The position numbers and the translations under genes were made by a program. A stretch of 64,000 nucleotides of DNA, from the NCBI GenBank assembly GCA_014728035.1, contig WJMJ01000002.1, positions 860 to 64,859 on the forward strand, in the 5' to 3' direction. The DNA comes from Promethearchaeota archaeon. GTDB taxonomy: Archaea > Asgardarchaeota > Thorarchaeia > Thorarchaeales > Thorarchaeaceae. The notes beneath the pieces are model-generated. The model ran no database searches and had not been told where the DNA came from. It was given only the letters and a program-made list of their open reading frames with translations. Below, in pieces: positions 2,435-38,290 of the stretch (positions are counted from its first letter, which is position 1; every line of letters begins with the position of its first letter).

Positions 2435-4405
2435 TTATTTCTTCTTTGTTGATGCCTTCTTTTTAACTTCCTCTTTAGAATCATCTTCTATCTTTCCAAT
2501 AATATCGTCATATAAGGCATTAATACCATTCATTTCATTTTGAAGTTGGATTATCTCTTCTTTCAACTTGTGTTTACGAGCTGTCTGTAGTGCTTGTTGG
2601 ATAGCGGAAATCAAACGTTCCAATTCTAGTTTCTGTTCTTCAGGATTTTTCATCTGAAGCATAGCCATACGCTTTTTGGGCATTACACTAAGCAATCCAG
2701 AAATGGCATCAAGAGCCTCTTCTCTACTATCGAGTGTAGCTTGTAATTCATCCTGTTCTTCAGAAGCTGATAAAATTCGCGAGATTTGGTCAAGTACCTT
2801 TTTATGATCAGCAATTGCAGTTGAAATTATATTTTGAACTTCTTCCTCATCGTCTTCTTCAGCGTCCTCTAATCTATCTTCAAGTTGTGAAATTGCACCT
2901 TCTAAGAAGGATTTGCGGTCTGAAAGAGAGGTTCTTCTACGTTCCATCCATCTCCATTCACTTTCAATGCTATGAGTTAATGCAAGAGCTTGATTGATTT
3001 TCTCTCTATACTGATCCATCTTTTCACGTGCATCTTCAAGGTCATTTTCCAGATTATCAGTAACAAATGATAATTGATAACTTAGAATATTGCCTGCTTG
3101 TGCTTCTGTAAGAACACGACTCTCTTTGATGGCTCTAGCAGCCTCTTCCCAGAGTTTGTCCACTTCCTCATCGTCACAAATTGTACGGCCTGTTAGATCA
3201 AGTTCATCTGAAATTTGCTCGATTCGTTCATTTAATTCTTGAATTTCAGAGATCTTAGTCTTCAACAACGCCGTTCCTAATCGAGCATTAATTTCATTCA
3301 TCATTTTCTGACGTTCTTCTGGAACTTCATTGAGAACTGATGTGTTGTCTATAAGTAGTTGAAGTGCCTTTTCGAAAGCAGTTACCGCGTCAAGATACTC
3401 TTCATTTTGAACTAATTTGTCACCTTTTGTACGTAGTTTGAGTACCTCCTCTAAAACATCATAGGGGGAAGTTTTCAGAAGACTAACTCCAAGGTCATGT
3501 GCTTCTGGAGTGGTAAGATCAAGCGACAATTCATTCAGTAGCAATTCCACAATTACCAGACCATCTGATGAGGCAATAAACACATTTGGACCATCAGCAT
3601 CAATCCAATTAGCTTTGAAGCCGTTTACTTTTACTTTTCCAATGAAAATATTCCGTTTAATGTCCCAAACAGCTAAGTGATTGGAATTAATAGATGCAAC
3701 AATAAAATGTTGATTTGCCCATAGAGAAGTCAAAGGGTCTGAATTATCCGCTGAAAAAGTCTTGCTAACTTTCCATTCAATTCTGTCAAACACATAAATT
3801 GCATCTGAAGAAACTCCTGCAATGATGAAATCTTCATTTCCGGTAACAATAGCACCTTTAATCTTTTGATCAATAGGATGTATTTCTTTGGGCTGGTCGT
3901 TTTCTTTGTGCGTCCAGATAATCGGTTCAGATTTCTTTGTGCCGGTGCAAATATGGTGGTCATCAGACCATAGTGTGGTGATATCTGTTTTATGGAGTTG
4001 CCAGCTTGAAGTTTCATGAGTATCCTTTTTTATTGCAACTAGTCGACCATCCTTAGCACCAACGTAGAGATAATCACCTCGCAAAGTGGATGATATTGCT
4101 TGATAACTTAGCTCAAACCACCCCAACATGCCCCAGGTCTCTTTCTTCCAGACATAGACCCGTTTCTCACATGTTGCATAAATATGTTCATCATCAACAT
4201 GTACTGAAAGAGGTTCGGAACTGGTTTCACCTAGAACAGCCTTAATTTGCCAATCTTCGCGAGAAATCACTCGCACCCGTTGATCTGTGCATGCCACATA
4301 GAGATAACTCGTGTCATGAACAATGTAGGTTGCATCCATTTCTAGAACAGCAACAGTTTCATGACCAAGAGTTAGGCTCTCGGCTGCACCTCCCGTTTTG
4401 GACAC
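2435..4405 (-). CDS. Seven-bladed WD40/PQQ-like beta-propeller fused to a ~350-aa alpha-helical/coiled-coil region and a Lys-rich tail
   Basis: 656-aa ORF with a GTG start at 4405. Seven ~40-aa blades (YLYVACTDQRVRVIS, HIYATCEKRVYVWKK, YLYVGAKDGRLVAIK, HHICTGTKKSEPIIW, DFIIAGVSSDAIYVF, HFIVASINSNHLAVW, NVFIASSDGLVIVEL). Then E/K/L/Q-rich helices that begin with a TPR-like unit. C-terminus is KEEVKKKASTKKK. Confidence 0.8.
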   Translation of the reverse strand: MSKTGGAAESLTLGHETVAVLEMDATYIVHDTSYLYVACTDQRVRVISREDWQIKAVLGETSSEPLSVHVDDEHIYATCEKRVYVWKKETWGMLGWFELSYQAISSTLRGDYLYVGAKDGRLVAIKKDTHETSSWQLHKTDITTLWSDDHHICTGTKKSEPIIWTHKENDQPKEIHPIDQKIKGAIVTGNEDFIIAGVSSDAIYVFDRIEWKVSKTFSADNSDPLTSLWANQHFIVASINSNHLAVWDIKRNIFIGKVKVNGFKANWIDADGPNVFIASSDGLVIVELLLNELSLDLTTPEAHDLGVSLLKTSPYDVLEEVLKLRTKGDKLVQNEEYLDAVTAFEKALQLLIDNTSVLNEVPEERQKMMNEINARLGTALLKTKISEIQELNERIEQISDELDLTGRTICDDEEVDKLWEEAARAIKESRVLTEAQAGNILSYQLSFVTDNLENDLEDAREKMDQYREKINQALALTHSIESEWRWMERRRTSLSDRKSFLEGAISQLEDRLEDAEEDDEEEVQNIISTAIADHKKVLDQISRILSASEEQDELQATLDSREEALDAISGLLSVMPKKRMAMLQMKNPEEQKLELERLISAIQQALQTARKHKLKEEIIQLQNEMNGINALYDDIIGKIEDDSKEEVKKKASTKKK

Positions 4406-4648
4406 TATTATTCAGTCCTACTAAACATTCGCTATCAATGACGAGATTTTTTATCTCTTAAGGGATTTCCTCATGTATCATTTACGTGTTAATAGGTTGT
4501 TTTTCAAGGCAAAAATAGGTCGATTTATCGAAAACAATCCAAAAAATGAAAAAGGAACCGCGCCAAGGCGTACCTAAATAGCCAAAACACACTAATATAG
4601 TAGAAGTGAAATGAAAATACAGCCGCACTATTATCGGAGGAAAATCAT
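4406..4648. promoter_or_regulatory. Divergent AT-rich intergenic region shared by the propeller gene (-) and the tubulin-like operon (+)
   Basis: 243 nt. TATA-like TAATATA at 4593-4599, about 50 nt upstream of TTG 4649. A/T-rich box (gattttttatc, ~4445-4455) upstream of the minus-strand start. SD-like GGAGG at 4636-4640, 8 nt before TTG 4649. Confidence 0.4.
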
Positions 4649-7336
4649 TTGGATACCCATGCATGGAGGCGTGAGCTAGACAAGCTCGCTGATTTGAAAG
4701 GAATACTGATTTCTCTCAATCCCTCATTAGAAGAAAATGTTAGCAGACAAGTGCGTCATCTTTTTGACGTGTTTGCAAAAGTAACAAAATTGGAACAAGA
4801 GGTTGAGGAAGCAGGTTTCTTCAGTAAAAGAAAAGTGGAAGGTCAGTTTGAGAAAGTTCATTCTGAACTTGAAGAGGATTTCATGCGAGTCACTAGAGAT
4901 TTCGGTGACCTTGCAAATAAGGAATTCAGAAAAATCCAAACAGTTGTACCTGGGCTTCAAGCTCTAAGACCAAAAGAAGCAACAGCCCTCAAGAAACTAT
5001 CCTTTCCGAGCGTAGGAACTGGCGCACCACAAGATCTCGAAACACTCTTCGAATTTATGGATAAGTTTTCAAATACGGTCACAAGCCTACACGATGAGTT
5101 CGCACGTGAAGTAAAAAACCTGCTTGATGAGAATAAACGTATTGTAGAAACATACGAACGGCACATTACAATAGATAGAGGAGAAGTCACAACCACTATT
5201 TCCAATGATGATGTGTCTCAGATGCCACTTAATGACCTCATTAGAATCATGGAAAAGCTGAAGGTTGAACGGACCTATCTGGATGGGCGAAAAGACGAAG
5301 TTGGACGGATGCTAACGACAGCATTGATGACAGATGTAGAGGCACTCCAAGCATATGTTGAAACAGCTTCAAAGATTGGACTTGAATTGCCAATGGACTT
5401 TACACAAAAATTGAGAATCCTTGCCCGTGATGCTTCAAAAGCGTCAAATCTAACAACACTAATCAGTCTTGAAAACCAGCTCCAGACAGCCAGACTTCAA
5501 ATGGGGAATATGCTTCGAGATAAGATCATCAATCTCAAGCATGAAATAACTACAAAAATCGTTTCTGGTGGCATTCCTACCACATCGGAGGTCATTCCAG
5601 AAGCTCCAACCGTAGGTGTTGAAGGAAACGACATTGCAAATCTATTAGCTTCTTATCAGAAAATGGTTGAGTGGACAAGTCAAGTTCGTATTTCACTGAA
5701 GCAGGAAATAGAAGAATCTTTAGAGGAACTTGCAAAAGCTACCGACAATCCAAGTGATTGTGGGATAGAAGATGTGCTTGAAGCAAGAAAGGACATCGCT
5801 GATTGGAAGAAAGAACTATCTTCAGCTGACATTGATGGAATGATTAAGATATATCTCAAAGCATCAGAACGGGAAGAAGAATATAGAAAGCATGTTACTG
5901 ACTTGATTAAGAGCTACATTACAAGATTCAATGAATTAGCTACTTCTGCAGACAGAGTTCTAGATTATGCACAATTAAGTAAGAAGGCACCAAAAGTTGA
6001 AGACTTGGAAGGAGGAATTGTGTTTCTGATTGAATCTTTGAAAAACCTCAGACAAGCTGTTGAAAGTGGTGTAGCAACATTTCGTGACGCATGCCAACAA
6101 GAAATTGATGCTATCATCCAAGACCTTCAAACCATAAAACCTCAGTATGCAGAAATATTCATGCCGATTAATGTTGAACTAGAAGAAGGCTCAATGCGAA
6201 TCGAAGCAATGAATGAGTTCAGTGAAATTCGTTCTGAAATGAGAACCATCAAAGATACCATTCTAGCAAAGGCAAAAGATGCACTTGAAAACCTCCGATA
6301 TCGACTCCAAGTCAAGATTCGCCTTGCAGCAGCGAAACTGATGGGGGCGGGTGTTGAAATTCCAAATGAAATCCAAGAAGCTATCAGTGAGCTAAATAAC
6401 GTAGGCGTTGCAGCTGATAATGTGTTCAGCTTGCCGGCTATCGCCCGAAGAATGATAGAATTATATGAACACAAGATTACCGATAAGATTCTCGAAGTCC
6501 TCGAAGAAGAGGTTAAACAGCTGCTGGGTATGCTTGAGAAAGCTCAGAGTATTGGTGTAGACGTAGATAAGGAAATTGCAATTGTGAGTGCAATCAAGGA
6601 CGAACCACCTACTGAATTAGATGATGCTGCTGATGCTTTTGATAAGCTCGAAGGACTTACTACTTCTGAAGCAGTTCATAAGAAGGTTCGTTCCAGAGCA
6701 AATGAAGCATATCGTCAAATCAAAGATGCTGTATCTATCTTTGAAGAACAAGGTATGTCAGAATTTGTTCAGAGATTGTCAACCCTTCTTGATCGAGTAC
6801 CATCTCAGCTTTCAGAGAGCTCGAAACATGTGAATGAGGCTCTAGATGTGTGTCTGACTCTAGCAAATATCCAAGAGGAGATGCTTGATGTTATCAAGGG
6901 TATTGCAGCTAAAGAGAAGGAGGCTCATGATAAAGACATCCGAACAAAGAGCAAATATTACTCAACAATTGAACGTGTGTACAAAATGCACCCTGATGAT
7001 TTTAGCAGACTCATCTTTGATTTGAAAAAGATGGACAAACTAGAATCAAAACTGGAAACTGCAAAATCTCTTGACAATGCAATCGCGTCCTTTAATGAGC
7101 TATCAAGAATGCGAGTTGACTGGGTTGAAAAAGCTGCCAAGATGGATGATTGGCACAAATCCCTAAGAGTATACATGTCAGGATTCAGTGCGAGTGCAAG
7201 TGCAGACGAACGAAGTAAGTTTATTGACGATTCTACGAGGAAGATTCGTGAGACCTTTAGCAGAGAAGACATTAGCTCGTATCTATCTTGGGCCGTACAA
7301 GTATTGGTTCGTGCAATGGTAGAAAAACGCGGTTAG
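4649..7336 (+). CDS. 895-aa all-alpha-helical, coiled-coil-rich protein of unknown function; first gene of the tubulin-like operon
   Basis: Long ORF with a TTG start and a GGAGG RBS. E/K/L/A-rich heptad-like sequence throughout. No TM segment, P-loop or other catalytic motif recognised. A weak motif G-[LIV]-[ED]-[LIVD] after a helix recurs (IGLELP aa 243, CGIEDV aa 371, GAGVEIP aa 566, IGVDVD aa 635). Confidence 0.8.
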   Translation: MDTHAWRRELDKLADLKGILISLNPSLEENVSRQVRHLFDVFAKVTKLEQEVEEAGFFSKRKVEGQFEKVHSELEEDFMRVTRDFGDLANKEFRKIQTVVPGLQALRPKEATALKKLSFPSVGTGAPQDLETLFEFMDKFSNTVTSLHDEFAREVKNLLDENKRIVETYERHITIDRGEVTTTISNDDVSQMPLNDLIRIMEKLKVERTYLDGRKDEVGRMLTTALMTDVEALQAYVETASKIGLELPMDFTQKLRILARDASKASNLTTLISLENQLQTARLQMGNMLRDKIINLKHEITTKIVSGGIPTTSEVIPEAPTVGVEGNDIANLLASYQKMVEWTSQVRISLKQEIEESLEELAKATDNPSDCGIEDVLEARKDIADWKKELSSADIDGMIKIYLKASEREEEYRKHVTDLIKSYITRFNELATSADRVLDYAQLSKKAPKVEDLEGGIVFLIESLKNLRQAVESGVATFRDACQQEIDAIIQDLQTIKPQYAEIFMPINVELEEGSMRIEAMNEFSEIRSEMRTIKDTILAKAKDALENLRYRLQVKIRLAAAKLMGAGVEIPNEIQEAISELNNVGVAADNVFSLPAIARRMIELYEHKITDKILEVLEEEVKQLLGMLEKAQSIGVDVDKEIAIVSAIKDEPPTELDDAADAFDKLEGLTTSEAVHKKVRSRANEAYRQIKDAVSIFEEQGMSEFVQRLSTLLDRVPSQLSESSKHVNEALDVCLTLANIQEEMLDVIKGIAAKEKEAHDKDIRTKSKYYSTIERVYKMHPDDFSRLIFDLKKMDKLESKLETAKSLDNAIASFNELSRMRVDWVEKAAKMDDWHKSLRVYMSGFSASASADERSKFIDDSTRKIRETFSREDISSYLSWAVQVLVRAMVEKRG

Positions 7337-7355
7337 TAAAAAGGGGTAATAAATC

Positions 7356-8738
7356 ATGCAAAGAATCAGAGGAAGCGAAAGCGACGAAACAACCAAAGCA
7401 GCCGAGGTATTTGCCATTGGTATTGGAGAATGTGGGTCAAACATAGTAGGTTCATATTTACAGACGAGTAGGGATAAGAGACTCCCCTCCCGTGTCAGAG
7501 GTTACATGTTGATGAATACGGATAGGGCGGACCTTACAAAAGTCCGTTCGAAATATGGTATTCCAAAAGAAAACACCATGCTCTATGGTGCTTCTGAAAT
7601 TGGAGTCGGTGGCCGATTCATGGATGGATATAATGCAATGATGGAATCTAAAGATATCATCTTTGACCAGCTCGGAAACCTAGGGTTTGAAGGGGTGTCA
7701 GGTTTCTGCATTTTCACCAGCCTAGGAGGTGGTACTGGTTGTGGAGGAACACCGGCAATCATTGAACTTCTAAAGCAGAGGTTTCAAGAAGAGGAAGGTA
7801 GACGTATTTTCGTCTATGTGATTGGGGTACTTCCTTTTGAAGGGCAATCTAGTGAAGCCTTGAATTCTATCTGGGCAGTTTCAAAACTGCTTAGAGCACA
7901 GCTTCAAGAACGAGGAGCTGACCTCACTATTCTCCTAAGTAATCGTACCATGCTAAAGAGAATTCTCAATTCAAGGAAATCTGATAGTGTTGATTATCTG
8001 CAAAGAGAACTTGATGTAGACATCGCTAGTGTTGATCAGATTGAAACAAAAGTGCCATCTACTATTGATGAAACAGAAGATATGGATAGAAGGACTGAGC
8101 AGGCATTTGTAGAACTCGTGAATCCACTTGCACTCGATGTCATTGAGGCAATGCTCTCACCTGGAGTCTACGAGGATAACAAAGATGTATTTCCTACTAC
8201 TGACCTTGCAGACTACTCTAGAAAGCTTGACCCAGTAGTTGTACCAGCTCTGTACCAAGATATTGGTTTGATACCTGATGCAGGTAGCATGCCAAAGCAA
8301 CTGCGCTCAATGGTAGATTATGCTATCAAGGAAACATCGTATGCAGATGTTGGTGATCAACCGAATGCAGAAAGTGTCTATTATGTATTCAGCGGACCTA
8401 AGCATATATCAAAAGCAGAATATGGAATGCACTTGAAAGAATCACTTGACAAGTTTATCGCACCAGGCGCTGCGATTACACCATGTTATGTCCAATATTA
8501 TGATAAGGAACCAACTACCAATCTTCTTCTATTATTGGGATTGCCAAAAATACCAGAACTAGTACAAATTATCAATGAGGCAACTCAACTTGTCAACCTT
8601 CACAGCGGTTCTTCACCATTGAAACAAGGATGGTTCATGAGATCTAAAGGGACCACTAGAAAAGAATTGGTTAGTGCAATCAGCGATTTCAGAGAATTAT
8701 TCAGTTATTACATGACTCCTGGAGACACGATGGAATAG
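7356..8738 (+). CDS. Divergent tubulin/FtsZ/CetZ-superfamily GTPase
   Basis: 460 aa. ATG 7356 lies 8 nt after AGGGGT (7342-7347). T1 GIGECGSN (aa 22-29), T3-like GVGGRFMDGY, T4 signature SLGGGTGCGGTP (aa 122-133), T5 VLPFEGQ, T6 SNRTML, H7 AFVELVNPLALDVIEAMLSPG, T7 TTDLADY (aa 281-287). An FtsZ-like C-terminal domain is followed by a ~60-aa helical extension. Confidence 0.85.
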   Translation: MQRIRGSESDETTKAAEVFAIGIGECGSNIVGSYLQTSRDKRLPSRVRGYMLMNTDRADLTKVRSKYGIPKENTMLYGASEIGVGGRFMDGYNAMMESKDIIFDQLGNLGFEGVSGFCIFTSLGGGTGCGGTPAIIELLKQRFQEEEGRRIFVYVIGVLPFEGQSSEALNSIWAVSKLLRAQLQERGADLTILLSNRTMLKRILNSRKSDSVDYLQRELDVDIASVDQIETKVPSTIDETEDMDRRTEQAFVELVNPLALDVIEAMLSPGVYEDNKDVFPTTDLADYSRKLDPVVVPALYQDIGLIPDAGSMPKQLRSMVDYAIKETSYADVGDQPNAESVYYVFSGPKHISKAEYGMHLKESLDKFIAPGAAITPCYVQYYDKEPTTNLLLLLGLPKIPELVQIINEATQLVNLHSGSSPLKQGWFMRSKGTTRKELVSAISDFRELFSYYMTPGDTME

Positions 8739-8739
8739 G

Positions 8740-9828
8740 GTGAGAAGCTTGACTGAAGAGATTGGGAATACCGACTTAATTGAGAGATTACTCCTCATTA
8801 CAACCTTAAATTCTACCCTGATTCATTTCCTAATTACATCTCAAGTTGAAGGTTCTATAGACCCAGACAGAGTAGATTCATTGACTCAGGGACTTACACG
8901 TACTAGAAGTTGGTTGGAAGATTTGACTAACGCTCCTAAAATTCCTCCATCAACTCAGAACATTGTGGGGTTATTGGTCAAAAGACTTTCACAAATTGAG
9001 AGTGTCTTGCCAAAGCTTTCATTGATAGCAAAACAAGCTGAAGACAATAAAACACCCACTGCCGAAATCTTGTCTCTCCTTGATGGGGGAGAAATCACAC
9101 ACCCTGCTGTGAAAGAAGCAACCAAAGCTGCAGTCAGCACCATTCAAGATGATAAGCTTGAACCACTTGTTGATTTTTCATCACCTCAACAAGCTGAACC
9201 CAAAGAACCGTACAAAAAAGTCGGAGTCGAAAATGATGAATGGGGTCTCATTGGCCAAACTCAACGTATGATTCAACAATACTCAAAACGTTGTCATGCT
9301 CTGCTTCCAACATTCTGGCTTGAAGTTTTGAGAGAGCTTCACAGATACGAGTCCAGCTCCCCGTATATTGGGGATGCCATAGAAATGCCCGCAAGAATTG
9401 TTGTACGGATTGTGAAAGGACTTCTAACAGAAGCACCGGGAGCAAGATTATTGCAGGATCTGATGAAGAAAAGGGCGCAAGAGAATTATCTAGATGCTTC
9501 AGAAATAGAACGTGTCGAACGTGCAGTATCCAAGTATTTCTCAGGACTTGAGGATGTTCTTAAAGGTGAAGATGTGAATGTTCAAGAGAAAATTCTGGAC
9601 GCTCACACAGCGTTTGATGGATTTGGTTGGGGAGGTCCAGATCTTGAAAAACGTCTGATAAAAAGAATAAATCAACGGTGTGAAGAAGCAATGCAAAATG
9701 CTGAAACCGGAAGTGATCCTCAACGACAGGTTATCTATGCAGAAATAACCAAGTTACTCTGTAAACTCCAACATGCCATACTAGCTGAACCACGACTTCG
9801 TGAGATTCTGGCTCAGATGAAACCATAA
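8740..9828 (+). CDS. 362-aa alpha-helical protein of unknown function; third gene of the tubulin-like operon
   Basis: GTG start at 8740, one nucleotide after the TAG stop (8736-8738) of the tubulin-like gene. No TM segment and no recognisable enzymatic motif. Confidence 0.7.
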   Translation: MRSLTEEIGNTDLIERLLLITTLNSTLIHFLITSQVEGSIDPDRVDSLTQGLTRTRSWLEDLTNAPKIPPSTQNIVGLLVKRLSQIESVLPKLSLIAKQAEDNKTPTAEILSLLDGGEITHPAVKEATKAAVSTIQDDKLEPLVDFSSPQQAEPKEPYKKVGVENDEWGLIGQTQRMIQQYSKRCHALLPTFWLEVLRELHRYESSSPYIGDAIEMPARIVVRIVKGLLTEAPGARLLQDLMKKRAQENYLDASEIERVERAVSKYFSGLEDVLKGEDVNVQEKILDAHTAFDGFGWGGPDLEKRLIKRINQRCEEAMQNAETGSDPQRQVIYAEITKLLCKLQHAILAEPRLREILAQMKP

Positions 9829-13433: not shown

Positions 13434-13976
13434 GTGGATACAATGTCCGATGAATCAAAGTATCGTGTCGAAGCGGAAGATGATGAGGTCGAGGAGAAAA
13501 AAGGATTCTTCAGACCACTTCCAGAAGATCGCCCTGTTCAATCGGGTGATAAGAAACAACCAATTGTGAAGCTTTTGGGAATATCAATGTATGAAAAAAC
13601 ACGTGATAGAATCATCATTTTACTTGTGCCATTTCTCGTTGCACTCATAAATGCAAACGTATTCAGCTTGGTCATTATTCAGGCATTACCTGAATCCAGC
13701 CTGTTTTTATTCGTGATACCTATGTTATCCGCTATCCCAATTGGACTAACTGTGCACCACACTAAAAATGCATTGTTAGCATCTTTGATAGCATCCGCAT
13801 TTTTCGTTATGCTATTTGTGCTATTCTTGATCTCACCAGCTCTCATGAGTCCAAGGCTGAACGTTGGTGAATTCTTCGTGTCTGGAATGATCATAAGTGC
13901 AATTTATGATTTGTTTGTAATATTTGCAAATCTTCTTGGTTCTCTTATTGGTGCAATTCTCCGAGAATTCTTTTAG
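13434..13976 (+). CDS. Membrane protein (acidic N-terminus, ~4 TM helices)
   Basis: 180-aa ORF (GTG 13434, or ATG 13443) with an acidic N-terminus followed by four hydrophobic segments. Confidence 0.55.
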   Translation: MDTMSDESKYRVEAEDDEVEEKKGFFRPLPEDRPVQSGDKKQPIVKLLGISMYEKTRDRIIILLVPFLVALINANVFSLVIIQALPESSLFLFVIPMLSAIPIGLTVHHTKNALLASLIASAFFVMLFVLFLISPALMSPRLNVGEFFVSGMIISAIYDLFVIFANLLGSLIGAILREFF

Positions 13977-14022
13977 ATGAAGACGCAGAAGTTATATGCT
14001 AACAAATTCCGTCGGCATACCC

Positions 14023-14631
14023 ATGAAGCGAATTGGGGTTCTCATAAGCGGCAGAGGAACAAACCTACAAGCACTCATTGATGCTCAGAAACGAGGAGAA
14101 ATCAGTGGAGAGATTGCAGTTGTGATTAGCAACAAAAGCAAGGCGTATGGTCTCGAAAGAGCGCGTTCTGCAAATATCAAAACTGAAATTGTTACAAAGA
14201 AGACACATCCAATTCGTGAGGAACATGACAAACGAGTTGTGGAACTTCTCAAACAATATAATGTGGATTTTGTAGTTCTCGCAGGATATATGCGATTAAT
14301 CACGGAACATTTGATCAACCCGTTTCAAAATAGAATTATCAATATCCATCCTTCATTGCTACCATCCTTTCCAGGGATAGACGCTCAGAAACAAGCATTG
14401 GAATACGGTGTAAAAATTACTGGGTGCACTACACACATTGTCACTCTTGATATGGATGCAGGACCGATAATACTCCAAGAATATGTTCCAGTATTTGATA
14501 CAGATACTCGTGATACTTTGGCAGAGAGGATTTTGGAAAAAGAACATGAAATTCTTGTTGAAACCGTCCAGCTACTCTGTGAGGATAGAATTCGTGTTAC
14601 AGGAAGAATAACGAAAATTACTGGAGAATAA
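14023..14631 (+). CDS. purN: Phosphoribosylglycinamide formyltransferase (GAR transformylase, PurN)
   Basis: MKRIGVLISGRGTNLQ N-terminus, NIHPSLLPSFPG motif and MDAGPII. The ORF extends to ATG 13996, so the start is ambiguous between 13996 and 14023. Confidence 0.9.
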   Translation: MKRIGVLISGRGTNLQALIDAQKRGEISGEIAVVISNKSKAYGLERARSANIKTEIVTKKTHPIREEHDKRVVELLKQYNVDFVVLAGYMRLITEHLINPFQNRIINIHPSLLPSFPGIDAQKQALEYGVKITGCTTHIVTLDMDAGPIILQEYVPVFDTDTRDTLAERILEKEHEILVETVQLLCEDRIRVTGRITKITGE

Positions 14632-14633
14632 TT

Positions 14634-16025
14634 ATGTGCGGAGTATTAGGTATCCTCGGCAAGATGGATCTACCAATGGCAAGAGAATTACTACTTCTTC
14701 TAGCACATCGCGGGCAAGATGCAGCAGGGTTGCTCTGGGAATCCGAAAATATCTTCACTGAATCAAAAGCTACGGGTAGCCCAGCATTTATCGAGCTACC
14801 AAATGATTCACCTAGTATCATTCTTGGGAGTACACGATATCCAACTATAGGAAAGAGAGTTGCAAATGAGGAAGAACTAGATATTTTCGTGGGACCATTT
14901 CAATCAGAAAATGTTGCTCTGACACACAATGGAAACATCACAAATATGGCCTGTCAGACTGAACGAGAGTATTTTACAGATGCTCAATTTCTAACTGACA
15001 AGTTAGCTCAATATCTCAAAGAGAATGATAATCAATTACAGGATGCAATTGGTAAATTATCATCGGAGGTTGATGGAGCATTCAGTATTGTTGGAATTCA
15101 CGATAGCAAATTATTCGCGTTTAGAGATGCACGAGGGTTCAAACCGCTTGTCTTTGGAAGAAGTAAAGATCTCACAATAATCGCTTCAGAAAGCACTGTT
15201 CATGCAATGGCTGGGCTTACAATTGAGAGAGATGTATATCCAGGAGAGCTTCTCGTCTTCAGTAAGAATGGGAAACTCGAATCATTCTCAATTTCGCAAA
15301 ATGCATTGCATTCGCACTGTTTCTTCGAATATGTCTACTTTGCACATCCTGCTTCAACAATTGAAAATCAATTAGTCTATGACGTTAGATTCAGGCTTGG
15401 AAGAGCATTAGCACATGCATTTAAGAAAATGAATAAAGAGCCTCCAGACTATGTTGTTCCTGTACCCGATACGAGTAGACCGGCTGCACAAGCATTAGCT
15501 GAAACACTTGGTGTACCAATGCGTGAAATTATTTTGAAAAATCGTTATCTTGGACGCACTTTCATAGTTAGAACTCAGAAAGAAAGAAATGCAATGGCAA
15601 AAAGAAAGTATCTCTACTTGACTGATAAGATAGAGAATAAGACTATTCTCGTAGTTGACGACTCGATTGTTCGTGGTACAACAGCAAAAATGATTGTGCA
15701 TGACCTAAAAGAACTCGGTGCATCCAAAGTCTATTTTGCTGCTACCTGTCCACCTCAAGACCATCCATGCTATTATGGAATTGATATATCCACTGGCAAG
15801 GAGCTCATTGCTTCAAATTCCAGAAGAGAAGATATTCGAAAATACATTGGAGCTGATGCACTCATTTATCAAAATATGAGTGATTTAGTTAATGCAATAG
15901 GTCTAAAGGATCTCTGTCTTGCATGTCTTGATGGTGAATATCCGACTGAACATGCGAGATTCATCCAAGAACAGATTCAAGATGATGTAGAATCAGATGG
16001 ACGAGATTACGAACGGGTGGTGTAA
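14634..16025 (+). CDS. purF: Amidophosphoribosyltransferase
   Basis: N-terminal nucleophile MCGVLGI, Ntn glutaminase domain, and the PRTase motif ILVVDDSIVRGTT. Confidence 0.95.
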   Translation: MCGVLGILGKMDLPMARELLLLLAHRGQDAAGLLWESENIFTESKATGSPAFIELPNDSPSIILGSTRYPTIGKRVANEEELDIFVGPFQSENVALTHNGNITNMACQTEREYFTDAQFLTDKLAQYLKENDNQLQDAIGKLSSEVDGAFSIVGIHDSKLFAFRDARGFKPLVFGRSKDLTIIASESTVHAMAGLTIERDVYPGELLVFSKNGKLESFSISQNALHSHCFFEYVYFAHPASTIENQLVYDVRFRLGRALAHAFKKMNKEPPDYVVPVPDTSRPAAQALAETLGVPMREIILKNRYLGRTFIVRTQKERNAMAKRKYLYLTDKIENKTILVVDDSIVRGTTAKMIVHDLKELGASKVYFAATCPPQDHPCYYGIDISTGKELIASNSRREDIRKYIGADALIYQNMSDLVNAIGLKDLCLACLDGEYPTEHARFIQEQIQDDVESDGRDYERVV

Positions 16026-16984
16026 TGAAAATCGGAACGATTGCAAGTCATAGCGCACTGAACATCGTATCAGGAGCAAAAGCAGAAGGCTTTGATACAG
16101 TACTCTATTGCCAACCCAAACGTAGGGAATTCTATGAGTCGTTTGGTTTAGGAAAGTCTATTGTGGAAGTTGAATCGTTTGATGAAATACTCGACTTGGA
16201 TACTGAAGATGTGATAATGATTCCTCACGGTTCATTTGTTGCATATATTGGAGCAGATAAAATTCTCAAATCAGATTTGAATTTGTATGGAAACAAAGAA
16301 CTCCTAAAATGGGAAGAGGATAGAGAACTCAAATCACGATTGATGAAGGAATCAGGTCTCAGAGTGCCAAAAGAGTTTGATTCGGCTGATGATATTGATA
16401 CACCAGTCATTGTGAAGACCTACGGGGCTGCTGGAGGAGAAGGGTATTTCATTGCAAAGGACAAAGAAGAAGCAATCAGCAAAATGGATCCTGATGAGAA
16501 ATACGGGATACAGCAGTATGTCGTTGGAACCAAAGTATTCGTTACCTATTTCAATTCATTGAGTAAGGAACGCATTGAAGTATTTGGCGCTGATATCAGA
16601 TATGAAACGGATGCTGATGCAAACCTACGATTTGATGAGAAACCCTCCTTTGTCGTAATCGGAAATTTACCCTTAGTTCTTAGAGAATCCACTCTTGTGA
16701 GATATTTCAACATGGGAAAAAACTTTGTTCGTGGTTTTGAAAAACTAAACGGAGAAACCATCCCTGGGCCGTTTTGCATCGAGACTATCATTGATAGAGA
16801 ACAGAATATTTACACCTTCGAGTTTAGTGGCAGAATTGTTGCTGGTACCAACATATGGATTCCACATTCACCCTATTCATACTTACAATTTGGAGAAAAG
16901 ATGTGGATGGGAAAAAGAATTGCTCGAGAGCTGAAAGAATTAATCGAAGATGATGCGCTAGAAGATGCACTCTTACCAAAATAA
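16025..16984 (+). CDS. purP: 5-formaminoimidazole-4-carboxamide ribonucleotide (FAICAR) synthetase, archaeal PurP
   Basis: IGTIASHSALNIVSGAKAEGFDTVLYC N-terminus typical of PurP, with an ATP-grasp-like remainder. Its ATG overlaps the purF stop by 1 nt. Confidence 0.85.
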   Translation: MKIGTIASHSALNIVSGAKAEGFDTVLYCQPKRREFYESFGLGKSIVEVESFDEILDLDTEDVIMIPHGSFVAYIGADKILKSDLNLYGNKELLKWEEDRELKSRLMKESGLRVPKEFDSADDIDTPVIVKTYGAAGGEGYFIAKDKEEAISKMDPDEKYGIQQYVVGTKVFVTYFNSLSKERIEVFGADIRYETDADANLRFDEKPSFVVIGNLPLVLRESTLVRYFNMGKNFVRGFEKLNGETIPGPFCIETIIDREQNIYTFEFSGRIVAGTNIWIPHSPYSYLQFGEKMWMGKRIARELKELIEDDALEDALLPK

Positions 16985-16985
16985 T

Positions 16986-17495
16986 CTATAATTCTCTTTT
17001 CTCTTGTCTGCGGGTGTACAAATACACAAGAATTCCCAATATCAGTACTCCAAAATCCATACCGATAGCTCCAATCCAAGTACTATATACTCCAAGCCCA
17101 ACAGCAGGTATATCACTAAGGAATAGAGGCACACCGTCATAAGCTGAGTTGAAAACAGACATTGGCCAGCCTATAAAATCTAATATCCAATGGCTGAACA
17201 CAATTAATCCAACGTATAGACTTGAAAAGACAATTTGAATTTCTGAATCTTGACTACCTTGATTGACGGTCTGTGAATTATAGAACCTGAGGAAAATTGT
17301 TGATACTACAGCAACTAAGACCGACCAGAATCCTGCCATTACTAAACTATGAGTCATCCACAATTCTCCAAGATTCGGGTTCACAAAATATGGTAAATCT
17401 AACAATAGACTGGCTATTATAAGACACCAAAGTGGAATACTTCGGGAATATCTTTTGCTTGCAAATCCTACTCCAACATAGGCATGAGCTGGCAT
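16986..17495 (-). CDS. Membrane-bound metal-dependent hydrolase-like protein (DUF457/YdjM-like)
   Basis: 169 aa, polytopic. WMTHSL motif and a conserved His/Asp pattern (SHWILDF) resembling DUF457. Opposite strand to the pur genes. Confidence 0.55.
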   Translation of the reverse strand: MPAHAYVGVGFASKRYSRSIPLWCLIIASLLLDLPYFVNPNLGELWMTHSLVMAGFWSVLVAVVSTIFLRFYNSQTVNQGSQDSEIQIVFSSLYVGLIVFSHWILDFIGWPMSVFNSAYDGVPLFLSDIPAVGLGVYSTWIGAIGMDFGVLILGILVYLYTRRQEKREL

Positions 17496-17549
17496 AATAT
17501 TTCAAAATGCAATGTAGAAAAATATGATTCGTAAATGTATCATATGATT

Positions 17550-17915
17550 TCACATTCTATTTGATAACATACGACCAACAGTCATATGAATTATCTTGAA
17601 TGTATAAGGGTCAATTTTTCCTGATTTTTCAACTATTCTTTCGGATGAAATGGATCTAATCTGATGACATAGTGCGTATGATTCATTGTCAAGTCCAGTC
17701 CTTTTCTTAATGCGTACAACAGTCCAAAATTTCAGGTCCGTACTGGTAAGGGGCACTATAATCACTAGACCACTTTCCCCGGAATGTCGTCCTTCTTGCT
17801 TAGTTGGAACAGCTAGAACGATACATGGTCGAATTTTACCATTTATTTCTGATCCAATACCAATATCTAGTTGAACTTTAACAATCGCCCCCTGATAGTA
17901 TAGTCCCCCCGACAT
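17550..17915 (-). CDS. MazF/PemK-family toxin-like endoribonuclease
   Basis: 121 aa. GAIVKVQLDIGIGSEINGKIRPCIVL ... VIIVPLTS ... ALCHQIRSISSERI matches the MazF/Kid consensus (G.I..V.L.P..G.E..K.RP.vVL ... VP.TS ... Q.R.i...R). Confidence 0.75.
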   Translation of the reverse strand: MSGGLYYQGAIVKVQLDIGIGSEINGKIRPCIVLAVPTKQEGRHSGESGLVIIVPLTSTDLKFWTVVRIKKRTGLDNESYALCHQIRSISSERIVEKSGKIDPYTFKIIHMTVGRMLSNRM

Positions 17916-17946
17916 GTTATCCCCATCAATCCCGTATTATTTGATT

Positions 17947-18672
17947 CTAGAAACCTTTCAACTCAAATCTGACCGAGCTAGATGATGTTTGCCCAATAAT
18001 ATCCATCTGAGCACTCAGAGATTGAGCCCAGTCACGAATAAGACATTCTATCGTATCTATTATCTCACTGTCTAGATTATATTCTTTAGCTGATAGCGAT
18101 AACACAAGTGAAACTGCTAGAAACAAACATGAAAAATTGAAAGATAATACGAAAGATTGTAGCATCAGTCTCACAATCTCTACTTCATGATTGATTTCAC
18201 TAACGTTTTGTAGGTCAACTTCTGATATGGATAGAAATGAGATAAAATCAACATCTAAGTTGTTGAATAATAATGTATATTCCTCTACATTTTCTGTTTG
18301 AATCTCATATGAAGCTAATGACATTATATCAATAAATTCCATAATAATATTAATTGCGAAACGGAGATTCTCTCCAAGTATATAGCTATAATTCTTTTCT
18401 ATTATGACATCAATATCATTTTCTTGTACTTGTATGAAGAAATCCCTAATCGCTTTGATAGCTTTTCTAATTTCTTCTCTTGATGAACTCAAGTCCTTGA
18501 AAAAATCCTCGATATCCGTATTGATATTCTTGAACATGTCAAATAGAATTCTTTTGATATTGAGTCCAACATCACCAACTAACAAAGTCAATGGATCTCC
18601 AATCAGTTCCTTAAATTGGCCTTCTGTTTTTGTGAAGGGGCCCATTATGAAGATTTGTGACATCAAAACCAT
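17947..18672 (-). CDS. Hypothetical alpha-helical protein (241 aa) immediately upstream of the MazF-like gene
   Basis: ORF with an ATG start, 31 nt upstream of the MazF-like start on the same strand. I/L/E/D-rich helices. No motif recognised. Confidence 0.55.
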   Translation of the reverse strand: MVLMSQIFIMGPFTKTEGQFKELIGDPLTLLVGDVGLNIKRILFDMFKNINTDIEDFFKDLSSSREEIRKAIKAIRDFFIQVQENDIDVIIEKNYSYILGENLRFAINIIMEFIDIMSLASYEIQTENVEEYTLLFNNLDVDFISFLSISEVDLQNVSEINHEVEIVRLMLQSFVLSFNFSCLFLAVSLVLSLSAKEYNLDSEIIDTIECLIRDWAQSLSAQMDIIGQTSSSSVRFELKGF

Positions 18673-18808
18673 CTCATTAGTTGCTACAAGCTACTTTTCA
18701 TCCGTATTCATATATTTCTAACTATTTCTGACCTCAAAAACCCAGCGATAGGAAGACTTACAAAGAATAAGTTTCGGGCTGCGTTTGTTCATTACAGGAG
18801 TCAATTCG

Positions 18809-19882
18809 ATGAATAGGCCAACCATAGGAATGATAGGTTCACACAGTGCAGAAGAGATAGGAGTTGCTGCAAAAGCCAACGGATTCGATACTGTTGTTGT
18901 TTGTCAGAAAGGCAGGGACAAAATATACTCTATCTACAATAATCATCTCTATGACCATATCATTGTTCTTGACAAATTTGGAGATATCATCAATAAGGAA
19001 GTCCAAGATCAATTAATGGAACTTGAAACCCTATGGATTCCCAATAGATCATTTTCTGTATACGTTGGATACGACGAAATTGAAACTAAATTCGAAGTAC
19101 CAATATATGGAAATAGACACATTCTTCGAGTTGAAGAGAGAGGAAATCCAAAGGACCAATATTGGTTAATGGAGCAGTCTGGAATTCGAATTCCAAAACA
19201 GATGACTCCGGATTCAATTGATAGATTAGCAATTGTAAAAGTGCAACAAAAACACAGACCATTAGAACGTGCATTCTTCTACGCTTCAAGTCCTGCCGAT
19301 TATGATAAGACCAGTGAGAAGATGATTGAAGAAGGTCTGATTACTGAGGAAGACCTCAGACAAGCCACAGTTGAGGAATTCATCATTGCACCACGATTCA
19401 ATGCTAATTTTCAAGCCTATGCGATGAGCAATTATTTTGGTGATATTGATTTAGTCGGGTTTGACGATAGAGTTCAGACAAATCTATCAGGACTGCTAAA
19501 CTTACCAGCTCAAGACCAGTTAAAATTGGAGATAAAAATTCTCAATGAAGAAGTTGGTCATAAGGGAGTAACCATGCGGGAGAGCAAAAAACCATTGGTC
19601 TATGATGCCGCAGAATTGCTTCTTACTGGAGTTAAGAAACACTTTCCACCCCGAATGATCGGTCTATTCTCTCTTCAAGGAGCAATAACAAAAGATTCTG
19701 AGTTCGTAGTATTTGATTTGAGTCCAAGAGTACCAGGAGCTCCCTGTGTTGGACCAACTAGTCCTGAAATGAGGAGACTGTCATTGAAATTTAAGCGAGA
19801 TATCCAAACACCATTAGACCTATGTATGATGGACATCAGTAGAGCAGCTGAAGAAAATGCTCTAAATGAAGCTTCCACATAA
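18809..19882 (+). CDS. PurP paralogue (FAICAR synthetase family)
   Basis: ORF 18785..19882. The likely start is ATG 18809, after CAGGAG (18795-18800). PTIGMIGSHSAEEIGVAAKANGFDTVVVC parallels the PurP N-terminus. Confidence 0.85.
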   Translation: MNRPTIGMIGSHSAEEIGVAAKANGFDTVVVCQKGRDKIYSIYNNHLYDHIIVLDKFGDIINKEVQDQLMELETLWIPNRSFSVYVGYDEIETKFEVPIYGNRHILRVEERGNPKDQYWLMEQSGIRIPKQMTPDSIDRLAIVKVQQKHRPLERAFFYASSPADYDKTSEKMIEEGLITEEDLRQATVEEFIIAPRFNANFQAYAMSNYFGDIDLVGFDDRVQTNLSGLLNLPAQDQLKLEIKILNEEVGHKGVTMRESKKPLVYDAAELLLTGVKKHFPPRMIGLFSLQGAITKDSEFVVFDLSPRVPGAPCVGPTSPEMRRLSLKFKRDIQTPLDLCMMDISRAAEENALNEAST

Positions 19883-19941
19883 TTCATAACCAATAACAAC
19901 AGGCGAAAATCAGGTCTGAAATAACTCTGAGAGGTTAATTC

Positions 19942-20907
19942 ATGAGCGTAATCCGTGAAGGAAAAGTGAAACGTGTCCTTGAAGACCCTTCGTCAAAGCA
20001 GCATGTGATAATTGAATTCACCAATTTCGTAACTGCTGGAGATGGGGCAAAGAAGGATGAATTGGAGGGAAAAGGGCGTCTAGCCTGTGACATCACAGAA
20101 TTTCTACTCAAATATCTATCAGATAAGGGAATAGAAACACACTATGTAGAAACACTCGAAGGTCCGAGGATACGGTGTTTCCGAGCTGCGATTTTACCGG
20201 TTGAAGTTGTTTGTAGAAATATTGCAGCTGGTTCTTTCTGTAGAAGATATGGCATAGAAAAAGGAATAGAACTAGATAGGCCCTTGGTTGAATTCTTTCT
20301 TAAAGATGACGACCTTGGAGACCCCTTAATAACTGAGGAAGCAGTTCTTCGATTGAATTTGGTAAATAAAACAGATCTAGGATTTATGAAATCAATCGCA
20401 CTCAGTGTAAATCACTATCTTTCTGAACTATTTGGACAACAAGAACTGCGATTAGTTGACTTTAAATTAGAATTTGGGAAGACAGCAGATGGACGCCTAG
20501 TGGTTGCAGATGAAATTTCAGGAGATACAATGAGAATCTGGAATAAAGAGGGAGAATCATTAGACAAAGATCTGTTTAGAGAAGATTCTGGAGACCTCCT
20601 CTCAGCGTATATCGGGATTCTGGAGATACTTCGCAAGACAGATCCGGATAGTATTCCAATTAGACCGGAAACTCTACAAGTCATTGTTATGCCAAAAGAT
20701 GGAATCAAAAACCCTCCTGGAGAAGTAACAAAAAAGGGTCTCATACGTCTAGGATTTCAGGATGTGAAGGAGGTTAGAGTTGGAAAAGTATTCCAAGTTT
20801 CTCTTACTAAACCCTTGACTAGTGGTCTTCTAAAAGGTCTTGAACTAATGAATATCAAACTACTCACAAATCCAATCGCCGAAACACATGAAGTGAGGTT
20901 AGCTTAG
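19942..20907 (+). CDS. purC/purS: SAICAR synthetase fused to FGAM synthase subunit PurS (PurC-PurS fusion)
   Basis: aa 1-~235 is PurC-like (REGKVKRV..., GKGRLACDITEFLL, RLVVADEISGDTMRIW). aa ~245-321 is PurS-like (LQVIVMPKDGIKNPPGEVTKKGLIRLGFQDVKEVRVGKVFQV...LLTNPIAETHEV). Confidence 0.88.
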   Translation: MSVIREGKVKRVLEDPSSKQHVIIEFTNFVTAGDGAKKDELEGKGRLACDITEFLLKYLSDKGIETHYVETLEGPRIRCFRAAILPVEVVCRNIAAGSFCRRYGIEKGIELDRPLVEFFLKDDDLGDPLITEEAVLRLNLVNKTDLGFMKSIALSVNHYLSELFGQQELRLVDFKLEFGKTADGRLVVADEISGDTMRIWNKEGESLDKDLFREDSGDLLSAYIGILEILRKTDPDSIPIRPETLQVIVMPKDGIKNPPGEVTKKGLIRLGFQDVKEVRVGKVFQVSLTKPLTSGLLKGLELMNIKLLTNPIAETHEVRLA

Positions 20908-20908
20908 C

Positions 20909-21607
20909 ATGGCAATTGCGGTTATCAGATTTCCCGGCACTAATAATGAGAAGGACGTGTTACGAGCTCTTTCTTCGATTCCTGGCGCAGAACCTTATTT
21001 AGTTCCAAGTTATGACGGTCCGGGTCCTATTGCAAAAGCAGATGGAGTTTTCATTCCCGGTGGATTCTCATATGGAGACTATCTTCGAGCAGGAGCAGTT
21101 GCCTCGGTTGAGGCAATTATGGATGGTGTAGTTGAGATTGCAAAAGCAGGAAAACCAGTCATTGGAATATGTAATGGCTTTCAAATATTAGCTGAAGCTG
21201 GACTTCTTCCTGGTGCACTGTTACCAAACGAATCAGCAAGATTTGTATGTAAATGGATTCACCTTCGAGCTTGTGAAACAAATAGTATCTATACTGAAGG
21301 TCTCGATTCAGCTATTTTACGTATTCCAATAGCACACGCAGAAGGAAATTTTTACTGTTCTAAAGAAGAGCTGCACATGCTAAATGGTGATGGAAGGGTC
21401 TCATTCAGATATTGTGACGAGGTAGGAGAAGCAACCGATGAAGTGAACCCAAACGGCTCACTTGATAATATCGCAGGAATTGTCAACGAGAGAGGAAATG
21501 TCTTAGGAATGATGCCCCATCCAGAACGAGCTTCAAGAGCTATTCTTGGCTCAACTGATGGTCTTGCAATTCTAGAGAATTTCGTTAGAGCAACACGAAC
21601 TGCATAA
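20909..21607 (+). CDS. purQ: FGAM synthase, glutamine amidotransferase subunit
   Basis: IAVIRFPGTNNEKD, nucleophile elbow GICNGFQIL, and MPHPER near the C-terminus. Confidence 0.95.
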   Translation: MAIAVIRFPGTNNEKDVLRALSSIPGAEPYLVPSYDGPGPIAKADGVFIPGGFSYGDYLRAGAVASVEAIMDGVVEIAKAGKPVIGICNGFQILAEAGLLPGALLPNESARFVCKWIHLRACETNSIYTEGLDSAILRIPIAHAEGNFYCSKEELHMLNGDGRVSFRYCDEVGEATDEVNPNGSLDNIAGIVNERGNVLGMMPHPERASRAILGSTDGLAILENFVRATRTA

Positions 21608-21616
21608 GGTGATGAT

Positions 21617-26476: not shown

Positions 26477-26532
26477 TTTCAGAGAGCTAGTCATATAAGG
26501 AATAGAATATCGCTCCCGAACGAGGCATTTCC

Positions 26533-38289: not shown

Positions 38290-38290
38290 A

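Follow-up and report, generated by a model that had tools for sequence, protein, structure and literature searches.

Asg.Tub, a branch of the tubulin/FtsZ superfamily, has been described as an Asgard-only, CetZ-like paralog with an unstable position between CetZ and the tubulins (Santana-Molina, Saz-Navarro and Devos, 2023; PMC9871819). The group was founded on four sequences (KXH77455.1, OLS30664.1, OLS26264.1, and PWI48967.1) and termed scarce, its C-terminus had no match to other families, and its neighbors were described as unannotated coiled-coil genes (PMC9871819). In the Figure 6 tree, Asg.Tub has a branch length of 2.0 and is sister to Halo.Tub with 62% support; it lies outside the supported canonical CetZ node of the published tree, and the authors' verdict was against a tubulin affiliation (PMC9871819). 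A 2026 study uses the Asg.Tub clade as an outgroup. Two further systems combine a tubulin-like protein with other genes: Halo.Tub is linked to the multi-gene "Halo_adaptin" system with non-cytoskeletal partners (PMC10936438), and the BtubA/B operon of Prosthecobacter includes the helical, filament-stabilizing partner BtubC (PMC9871819). Here, we analyze a stretch of 64,000 nucleotides from a Promethearchaeota archaeon of the family Thorarchaeaceae (assembly GCA_014728035.1, contig WJMJ01000002.1, positions 860 to 64,859; hereafter the window), which encodes a tubulin-like protein of 460 amino acids (aa) in the middle of a three-gene operon.

Its sequence places the window protein, as a Thorarchaeota member, in the Asgard-specific Asg.Tub branch. 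From aa 226 to aa 460 it shares 83% identity over 236 residues with the founder OLS30664.1 as given in the published supplementary C-terminal alignment, which includes two Thorarchaeales sequences (PMC9871819). A second founder, OLS26264.1, was taken from the genome of Heimdallarchaeota archaeon LC_3; the homolog P0113 belongs to the same archaeon and aligns with the same residues as the published C-terminal segment of that founder. We regard it as probable that this protein self-assembles in a GTP-dependent manner and, with the products of the two adjacent genes, constitutes a chromosomal cytoskeletal module.

As the family has already been named, its novelty is modest. The published and the present family agree in being Asgard-only, in their unmatched C-terminus and in their unannotated coiled-coil or helical neighbors, and the step from four sequences to at least 128 species genomes is a matter of number rather than kind. 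New with respect to the earlier study (PMC9871819) are the wide occurrence of the family, its extremely high conservation and its isolation, the signatures formed by an insertion between helices H6 and H7 and by a cysteine in loop T4, and the near-universal three-gene module. In the searchable literature we found no experimental work on Asg.Tub, and the name could be traced there solely to Santana-Molina et al. (2023); the family goes unmentioned in a 2026 review of Asgard biology. An initial annotation of this DNA, made from its letters, had held that its reading would fall if the protein were placed in a populated and characterized clade with the same insertion. The clade is indeed well populated, named, and equipped with the same insertion, but it is not experimentally characterized.

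Motifs and Predicted Fold of the Tubulin-Like Protein

The gene and its features are as follows, with invariance referring to an alignment of 24 homologs (49-87% identity).

7356..8738, + strand: Asg.Tub-family tubulin-superfamily GTPase gene, 460 aa; ATG to TAG open reading frame (ORF), supported by Pfam, alignment, AlphaFold2, and Foldseek
7404..7958, + strand: N-terminal GTPase domain, aa 17-201; Pfam PF00091, 70.5 bits, E 3e-19
7419..7442, + strand: T1 loop GIGECGSN, aa 22-29; G22, G24, E25, G27, and N29 invariant, C26 in at least 90%
7602..7631, + strand: T3 loop GVGGRFMDGY, aa 83-92; G83, G85, and G86 invariant, aligns to GVGADN of CetZ1
7719..7754, + strand: T4 signature SLGGGTGCGGTP, aa 122-133, with the family-specific Cys129; C129 invariant
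7827..7847, + strand: T5 loop VLPFEGQ, aa 158-164; P160, F161, and Q164 invariant
7938..7955, + strand: T6 loop SNRTML, aa 195-200; S195 and N196 invariant, N196 aligns with the T6 Asn of CetZs
7962..8096, + strand: family-specific H6-H7 insertion, aa 203-247 (acidic segment aa 206-244); T6-T7 spacing, low model confidence at aa 205-245
8103..8165, + strand: core helix H7 AFVELVNPLALDVIEAMLSPG, aa 250-270; N256 and P257 invariant, part of a long model helix spanning aa 241-270
8196..8216, + strand: T7 loop TTDLADY, aa 281-287; T282, D283, and D286 invariant, aligns with D..D/E of the CetZ T7 loop
8631..8651, + strand: C-terminal motif WFMRSKG; W426, F427, K431, and G432 invariant, within the C-terminal helices

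The GTPase domain matches PF00091 well above the cut-off of 33 bits, and the nucleotide-contact residues of all T loops are invariant among the 24 homologs. Because of this match and this invariance, the motifs are not chance resemblances. The initial annotation had read the protein as a tubulin-superfamily GTPase, and this identity holds: all nucleotide-binding loops are present, and each motif quoted there was located at its amino acid and nucleotide positions. The two acidic T7 residues singled out there, D283 and D286, are indeed invariant and align with the corresponding D..D/E of CetZ. Their counterparts are D209/D212 in FtsZ, D251/E254 in alpha-tubulin, and E218 in CetZ1; a catalytic role of D283/D286 is presumed.

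Other peculiarities noted at the outset are less distinctive than they had appeared. The T1 cysteine had been taken as a tubulin-like mark; it occurs also in some CetZs, such as 3zid and P0143, and thus is not tubulin-specific. Likewise, the T5 PF..EG motif is found in CetZs, so that the mosaic of tubulin and FtsZ motifs is real but represents a general CetZ-like pattern rather than a peculiarity of the 460-aa protein. The unusual T4 cysteine fares better. T4 reads GGGTGCG, Cys replacing the Ser/Thr of the superfamily signature GGGTG[ST]G, and Cys129 lies in an invariant block (G124-G131). CetZs carry Ser at this position, and in the alignment the cysteine is shared only with the nearest rare relatives of the family, P0124, P0135, and P0133.

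An AlphaFold2 model built on the 24-homolog alignment reaches a mean local confidence score (pLDDT) of 80.6 and a predicted TM-score (pTM) of 0.82, with low confidence only at the termini and at aa 205-245. Foldseek searches of the PDB with this model return full-length matches (E 1e-17 to 1e-19, TM 0.57-0.75) to gamma-tubulin (top match), OdinTubulin, Methanosaeta thermophila CetZ (3zid), beta-tubulin, AtubA, and BtubA/B. The predicted structure contains the two-domain tubulin fold, i.e., the GTPase domain, H7, and the T7-bearing C-terminal domain, as the initial annotation had expected. Foldseek scores are nearly the same for every tubulin-fold structure, so that this search cannot tell the subfamilies apart. 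The C-terminal 60 residues are helical with good model confidence; the helices cover aa 400-452, reach pLDDT 83-90 at 421-431 and 435-452, and may be either an extension or the equivalent of the C-terminal helices of tubulin and CetZ. The invariant W426-F427...K431-G432 motif falls outside the CetZ-alignable region.

The H6-H7 Insertion

Family members were aligned with CetZs and archaeal tubulin-like proteins obtained by an exhaustive profile search. In the window protein, 87 residues separate the T6 asparagine (N196) from the T7 aspartate (D283). The corresponding spacings are:

Asg.Tub family: 78-89
Distant relative P0135: 79
Distant sister P0124: 60
Five CetZs: 45-46
Four other archaeal tubulin-like proteins: 44-47

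This additional segment (aa 203-247 in the window protein) measures 35-54 residues in the 113 full-length family members analyzed and is conserved less than any other internal region of the family. Its net charge is -6 in the window protein and ranges from -8 to +3 among the 113 members, with a median of -3. The acidic insertion before H7 proposed initially is therefore real as an insertion, while strong acidity is a trait of Thorarchaeota rather than of the whole family. The H6-H7 region borders the nucleotide-side longitudinal interface in known tubulin/FtsZ structures.

Distribution, Conservation, and Isolation of the Family

A homolog search yielded 161 clusters, and all named matches are from Asgard lineages. 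Identity to the window protein is 82-89% for Thorarchaeota matches, about 60% for a second group labeled Promethearchaeota (Hermod/Borr/Sif in the genome scan), and 50-56% for matches from Heimdall, Hodarchaeales, Hermod, and "Asgardarchaeia". In a scan of one genome per species, relatives are encoded in at least 128 genomes from several Asgard classes; as the scan relies on two peptide patterns, the true number may be higher. These include the Thorarchaeota chromosome records CP070658.1 and CP070761.1, which are metagenome-assembled genomes (MAGs), as well as MAGs of Sif-, Borr-, and Hermodarchaeota; the best match is to Thorarchaeota isolate BC with 97% identity.

Searched against 1.84 billion representatives clustered at 50% identity, the family profile finds, apart from fragments, only two full-length clusters of the family (718 and 489 bits). 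Next comes a single distant relative of full length, P0124, with 154 bits and 27% identity, and all matches beyond it reach at most 75 bits and cover the GTPase domain only. Two clusters followed by so steep a drop in score indicate a family that evolves unusually slowly and lies far from everything else. Asg.Tub retains at least 50% identity across the phylum and ranks with the most highly conserved proteins of this type. In a neighbor-joining tree, its clades match the host lineages, with two paralogs in one Hodarchaeota MAG.

Some members and relatives stand out individually. The two Hodarchaeota paralogs, P0091 and P0116, are 54% identical and carry locus tags of the same MAG (ACFFB3_17225 and ACFFB3_23195); the paralog clade of P0116 and P0120 has a shorter insertion with a T6-T7 spacing of 78. 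The distant P0124 (L085:7001-9149, Logan SRR7811641) is a singleton beside SMC/ScpA and dihydroorotate dehydrogenase genes. P0133 (L088:7001-15308, GCA_027028455.1), a distant tubulin-like relative with the GGTGCG cysteine in T4, has a different context, with a 222-aa gene upstream, a 648-aa gene downstream, and, within a few kb, a ubiquitin-like system (ThiF E1, JAB, UQ_con E2, and a Prok-RING protein).

A Conserved Three-Gene Operon

In the window, three closely spaced genes share a strand, and the tubulin-like gene lies between the other two.

4636..4640, + strand: Shine-Dalgarno-like GGAGG, 8 nucleotides before the TTG start of the first operon gene; read from the sequence, function presumed
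4649..7336, + strand: upstream partner gene, 895 aa, product acidic, soluble, and predicted all-alpha-helical; ORF, AlphaFold2 model, synteny
7343..7347, + strand: Shine-Dalgarno-like GGGGT, 8 nucleotides before the ATG of the tubulin-like gene; read from the sequence, function presumed
8740..9828, + strand: downstream partner gene, 362 aa (GTG at 8740) or more likely 359 aa (TTG at 8749); ORF, synteny

The gap between the upstream stop codon and the tubulin-like ATG is 19 nucleotides long and contains GGGGT, and the downstream ORF starts 1-11 nucleotides after the tubulin-like stop codon. The downstream start is probably TTG at 8749 (MTEE...) rather than GTG at 8740, as the copy in the sequence collection has 359 aa and orthologs begin with MTE or MSE. 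A scan with bacterial-type promoter and terminator models, which says little about an archaeon, stayed at background level.

The arrangement is conserved far beyond Thorarchaeota. In 84 fetched loci, with counts restricted to those that have room for the neighbor in question, an upstream-gene homolog is adjacent and co-oriented in 66 of 67 cases and a downstream-gene homolog is adjacent in 81 of 82. Partner homology was confirmed by BLASTP and hhalign, also in remote lineages:

Heimdall-type locus L001: upstream partner E 2e-21, downstream partner E 2e-17
Deepest family branch, P0121 (L086): hhalign, upstream partner 100% and E 1.5e-42, downstream partner 99.3% and E 1.2e-20
"Asgardarchaeia" clade, L087: downstream partner 99.6%

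The trio is thus conserved from Thorarchaeota to Heimdall/Hod-type lineages and to the deepest family branch, with one tubulin-like gene per operon. Family-wide, the upstream partner measures 870-1170 aa and is all-helical, and the downstream partner measures 300-360 aa and is helical. The partners diverge much faster than the protein they flank. Between Thor and Hermod/Borr clades the tubulin-like protein is about 60% identical and the partners are 25-30% identical, and overall it retains 50-60% identity where they retain 20-30%. The sister P0124 is an exception, having no large helical gene upstream; its 262-aa downstream neighbor bears a faint resemblance to the downstream partner of the window (hhalign 32%).

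The Two Partner Proteins

Both partners are acidic and soluble, and none of the three operon proteins has a membrane segment. Even with profiles of 15 diverse orthologs, neither partner gave a significant match in Pfam, NCBIfam, or PDB sequences; the profile searches of Pfam and PDB sequences yielded nothing above chance level. An AlphaFold2 model of the upstream partner, built from 22 sequences (40-100% identity), shows about 20 long helices (pLDDT 83.9) in a global arrangement that is uncertain (pTM 0.37). A Foldseek search of the PDB with this model returned nothing below E 0.1; the top, non-significant entries are generic rods made of helical bundles (vinculin, the alpha-catenin M domain, and the dynein stalk, among others). 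In the downstream partner, a variable linker joins a helical N-terminal part to a conserved C-terminal domain (aa 166-362), which holds 16 of the 18 invariant residues of the protein.

A Pfam match to GCP_C_terminal in one of the 15 upstream-partner orthologs (E 0.0032), together with gamma-tubulin as the top Foldseek match of the tubulin-like protein, had raised the idea that the upstream partner is related to GCP proteins of the gamma-tubulin ring complex (gamma-TuRC). We rejected it, as the Pfam match is absent in 10 other orthologs and the GCP chain 9g3z_H ranked 43rd with E 7.7, a structural test that is itself subject to the uncertain global arrangement of the model. One upstream-partner ortholog, P0422, is named "tryptophanyl-tRNA synthetase" in its JGI record, a name that is unsupported here and looks like an annotation error.

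Comparison With Other Tubulin-Like Systems

Of the other long-branch, CetZ-like groups, Halo.Tub (e.g., Haloquadratum walsbyi) is the weakly supported sister of Asg.Tub (62). Its partners are adaptin-like beta-propeller and Ig proteins, whereas those of Asg.Tub are all-helical. The haloarchaeal-looking P0137 and P0140, which may belong to Halo.Tub, have a normal T6-T7 spacing of 44. In hhalign comparisons with Asg.Tub, a haloarchaeal-looking group without CetZ_C nearly equals CetZ, and the third-nearest group is the small P0133 group (E 7e-23).

BtubA/B with BtubC offers a functional analogy, namely a filament with a dedicated helical partner. However, BtubA/B is a true tubulin heterodimer and BtubC a tetratricopeptide repeat (TPR) protein, whereas the Asg.Tub operon has a single tubulin-like gene; TPR has no sequence match in either Asg.Tub partner, and the upstream-partner model matched no TPR structure. 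OdinTubulin and AtubA/B/C come from the same phylum, share the superfamily fold, and obtain comparable Foldseek scores. They are rare and close to eukaryotic tubulins, in contrast to Asg.Tub, which occurs widely, lies outside the tubulins proper, and shows no match to Tubulin_C.

Proposed Function and Alternative Explanations

In the cytoskeletal module that we favor, the Asg.Tub protein would bind GTP and polymerize head-to-tail into homopolymeric protofilaments, in which D283/D286 of one subunit would complete the GTPase site of the next and thereby activate hydrolysis. The long helical-bundle upstream protein and the smaller, two-domain helical downstream protein may bind, bundle, anchor, or regulate these filaments, and might dock via the H6-H7 insertion and via the invariant C-terminal WF..KG motif. 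The sister P0124 combines a spacing of merely 60 with the lack of a big upstream gene, which fits a link between insertion and partner. Cell shape, protrusions, and internal organization are candidate roles for such a module.

Several other explanations have to be weighed against this one. The protein might simply be a CetZ ortholog that controls cell shape like CetZ1 of Haloferax volcanii and has no special relation to its neighbors. CetZ (H. volcanii CetZ1/2, PDB 4b46 and 4b45; M. thermophila 3zid) is the closest characterized relative by sequence and profile: CetZ1 4b46 (E 3.3e-10) and CetZ 3zid are the best sequence relatives among solved structures, the CetZ group is the best profile-profile match over both domains (E 6e-33), and CetZ obtains the best target-normalized TM-score (0.71-0.75). 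The T1, T5, and T7 styles are similar, the hidden Markov model of the family C-domain recognizes, besides family members and the sister P0124, only two CetZs weakly and nothing else, and one database entry labels the Heimdall LC_3 homolog "Tubulin-like protein CetZ". However, CetZ_C (PF21011) has no match at E <= 1 in the window protein, while the control CetZs P0138, P0141, and P0143 score 60-184 bits; the T6-T7 spacing of 87 compares with 45-46, i.e., about 40 extra residues, and T4 carries Cys instead of Ser. Moreover, the archaeal group without CetZ_C scores nearly as well as CetZ (E 7e-30), published trees put Asg.Tub on its 2.0-long branch outside the canonical CetZ node (PMC9871819), CetZs belong to Euryarchaeota rather than Asgard archaea, and the dedicated operon partners are not CetZ neighbors. 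We thus consider simple CetZ orthology unlikely. Published trees and profile comparisons instead suggest a protein that is CetZ-like but outside CetZ, in agreement with the published verdict. A true tubulin relative that, like OdinTubulin or AtubA/B, stands on the line to eukaryotic tubulins and would form microtubule-like tubes appears very unlikely. Gamma-tubulin, OdinTubulin, and AtubA are among the top Foldseek matches, the T1 cysteine recalls the tubulin GQCGNQ, and in one published tree Asg.Tub branched with tubulins. Yet the Foldseek scores are about equal for all tubulin-fold structures, Tubulin_C (PF03953) gives no match at E <= 1, sequence E-values are 1e-3 to 1e-4 for tubulins versus 3e-10 for CetZ1, one tubulin-like gene per operon implies that there is no alpha/beta-type pair, and both the conclusion of the published authors and the outgroup role of the clade in the 2026 study oppose the affiliation. 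The case for an FtsZ-type cell-division protein is highly improbable: the FtsZ-like T5 and T7 motifs and a weak match of the N-terminal domain to FtsZ in NCBIfam (E 2e-8) are set against 33.9 bits for the TIGR00065 equivalog with its cut-off of 295.2, no Pfam match to FtsZ_C (PF12327), operon partners unrelated to any known divisome protein, and canonical FtsZ1 and FtsZ2 in most Asgard archaea according to the literature.

A three-gene operon centered on a tubulin-like gene also resembles TubZRC, and phage FtsZ and PhuZ are structurally similar to the window protein (E down to 2.8e-18). A mobile-element DNA-segregation system of the TubZ/PhuZ type, with the neighbors as adaptors, nevertheless has next to no likelihood: relatives occur in 0 of 2.9 million viral contigs, the viral structural matches (TMq 0.41-0.57) are weaker than the cellular ones, the Asg.Tub clades track host lineages, and the partners have no match to a DNA-binding domain. 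The genes lie in ordinary chromosomal context beside purine-biosynthesis or metabolic genes, including in the complete MAG chromosomes CP070658.1 and CP070761.1. A viral or plasmid origin was rejected because of the missing viral relatives and the weaker similarity to phage FtsZ and PhuZ. Finally, the protein could be a non-polymerizing GTPase that forms a complex with its two partners and serves there as a scaffold or as a nucleotide-dependent switch. A large insertion beside the longitudinal-interface region could block polymerization, and the strict association with two partners is also compatible with a discrete complex. On the other hand, the T7 acidic residues, which are needed only for trans-activation in a polymer, are invariant, and the whole surface is strongly constrained (at least 50% identity across the phylum), as is typical of self-assembling cytoskeletal proteins; we consider this explanation quite improbable.

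The filament module has points against it as well. The literature searched holds no experimental evidence of GTP binding, polymerization, or partner binding for any family member, and a physical interaction with the partners is deduced solely from conserved gene order. The link between insertion and partner hangs on one sister sequence, P0124, and the position of the insertion relative to filament interfaces is taken from general knowledge of tubulin/FtsZ structures. For an insertion that is poorly conserved and modeled with low confidence, a flexible linker is no worse an explanation than a specific docking site. At the paralog locus L003 (P0120), furthermore, the upstream partner is kept and the downstream partner is missing, so that the trio is not absolutely obligatory. 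At this Hodarchaeales-type locus (L003:4545-17347, JGI 3300041085), the place of the downstream partner is taken by a gene of 2315 codons or more, with a called product of 2647 aa.

A more far-reaching version is a three-component filament system that is distinct from FtsZ rings, CetZ filaments, and microtubules, that uses the insertion and the WF..KG motif for docking, and that has been inherited vertically since before the split of Thor- and Heimdall/Hod-type lineages. We put it forward tentatively, as a possibility about which doubt prevails. If it is true, inheritance since before this split would place the system in the archaeal lineage ancestral to eukaryotes, where it would later have been lost or have diverged beyond recognition. 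True tubulins have been reported to be rare in Asgard genomes, in contrast to Asg.Tub with its presence in at least 128 species-level genomes. If filaments form with the partners, Asg.Tub would represent a cytoskeletal system that is widespread among Asgard archaea and has escaped attention until now. The three proteins are predicted to be soluble and of moderate size, so that reconstitution in vitro is directly feasible.

Genomic Surroundings

tRNA and Rfam scans of the 64,000-nucleotide window gave no matches. Divergent from the operon lies a gene for a 656-aa WD40 beta-propeller protein (2435-4405, - strand) with a TPR gene beside it (1776-2426, + strand); both are syntenic only within Thorarchaeota and therefore are not counted in the module. 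Arf/Roc-family small GTPase genes are found near the operon at two other loci, directly upstream on the same strand in L087 (3532-4113) and 3.4 kb away in L001 (102-1037). Since small GTPase genes are numerous in Asgard genomes, this proximity may be accidental.

Further along the window, positions 13434-28092 hold a purine-biosynthesis cluster with a formyltransferase, an amidophosphoribosyltransferase, two DUF1246/DUF1297 ATP-grasp genes, a SAICAR synthetase-PurS fusion, FGAM synthase, an AIR carboxylase-AIRS fusion, and GMP synthase. Four successive PAS/GAF sensor histidine kinase or response-regulator hybrid genes (473, 742, 988, and 895 aa) occupy 34717-43941 on the - strand. Finally, a 1025-aa protein encoded at 57511-60588 (+ strand) combines PQQ/FG-GAP beta-propeller repeats, a PPC domain, and bacterial TSP3 repeats and is probably secreted or located at the cell surface.

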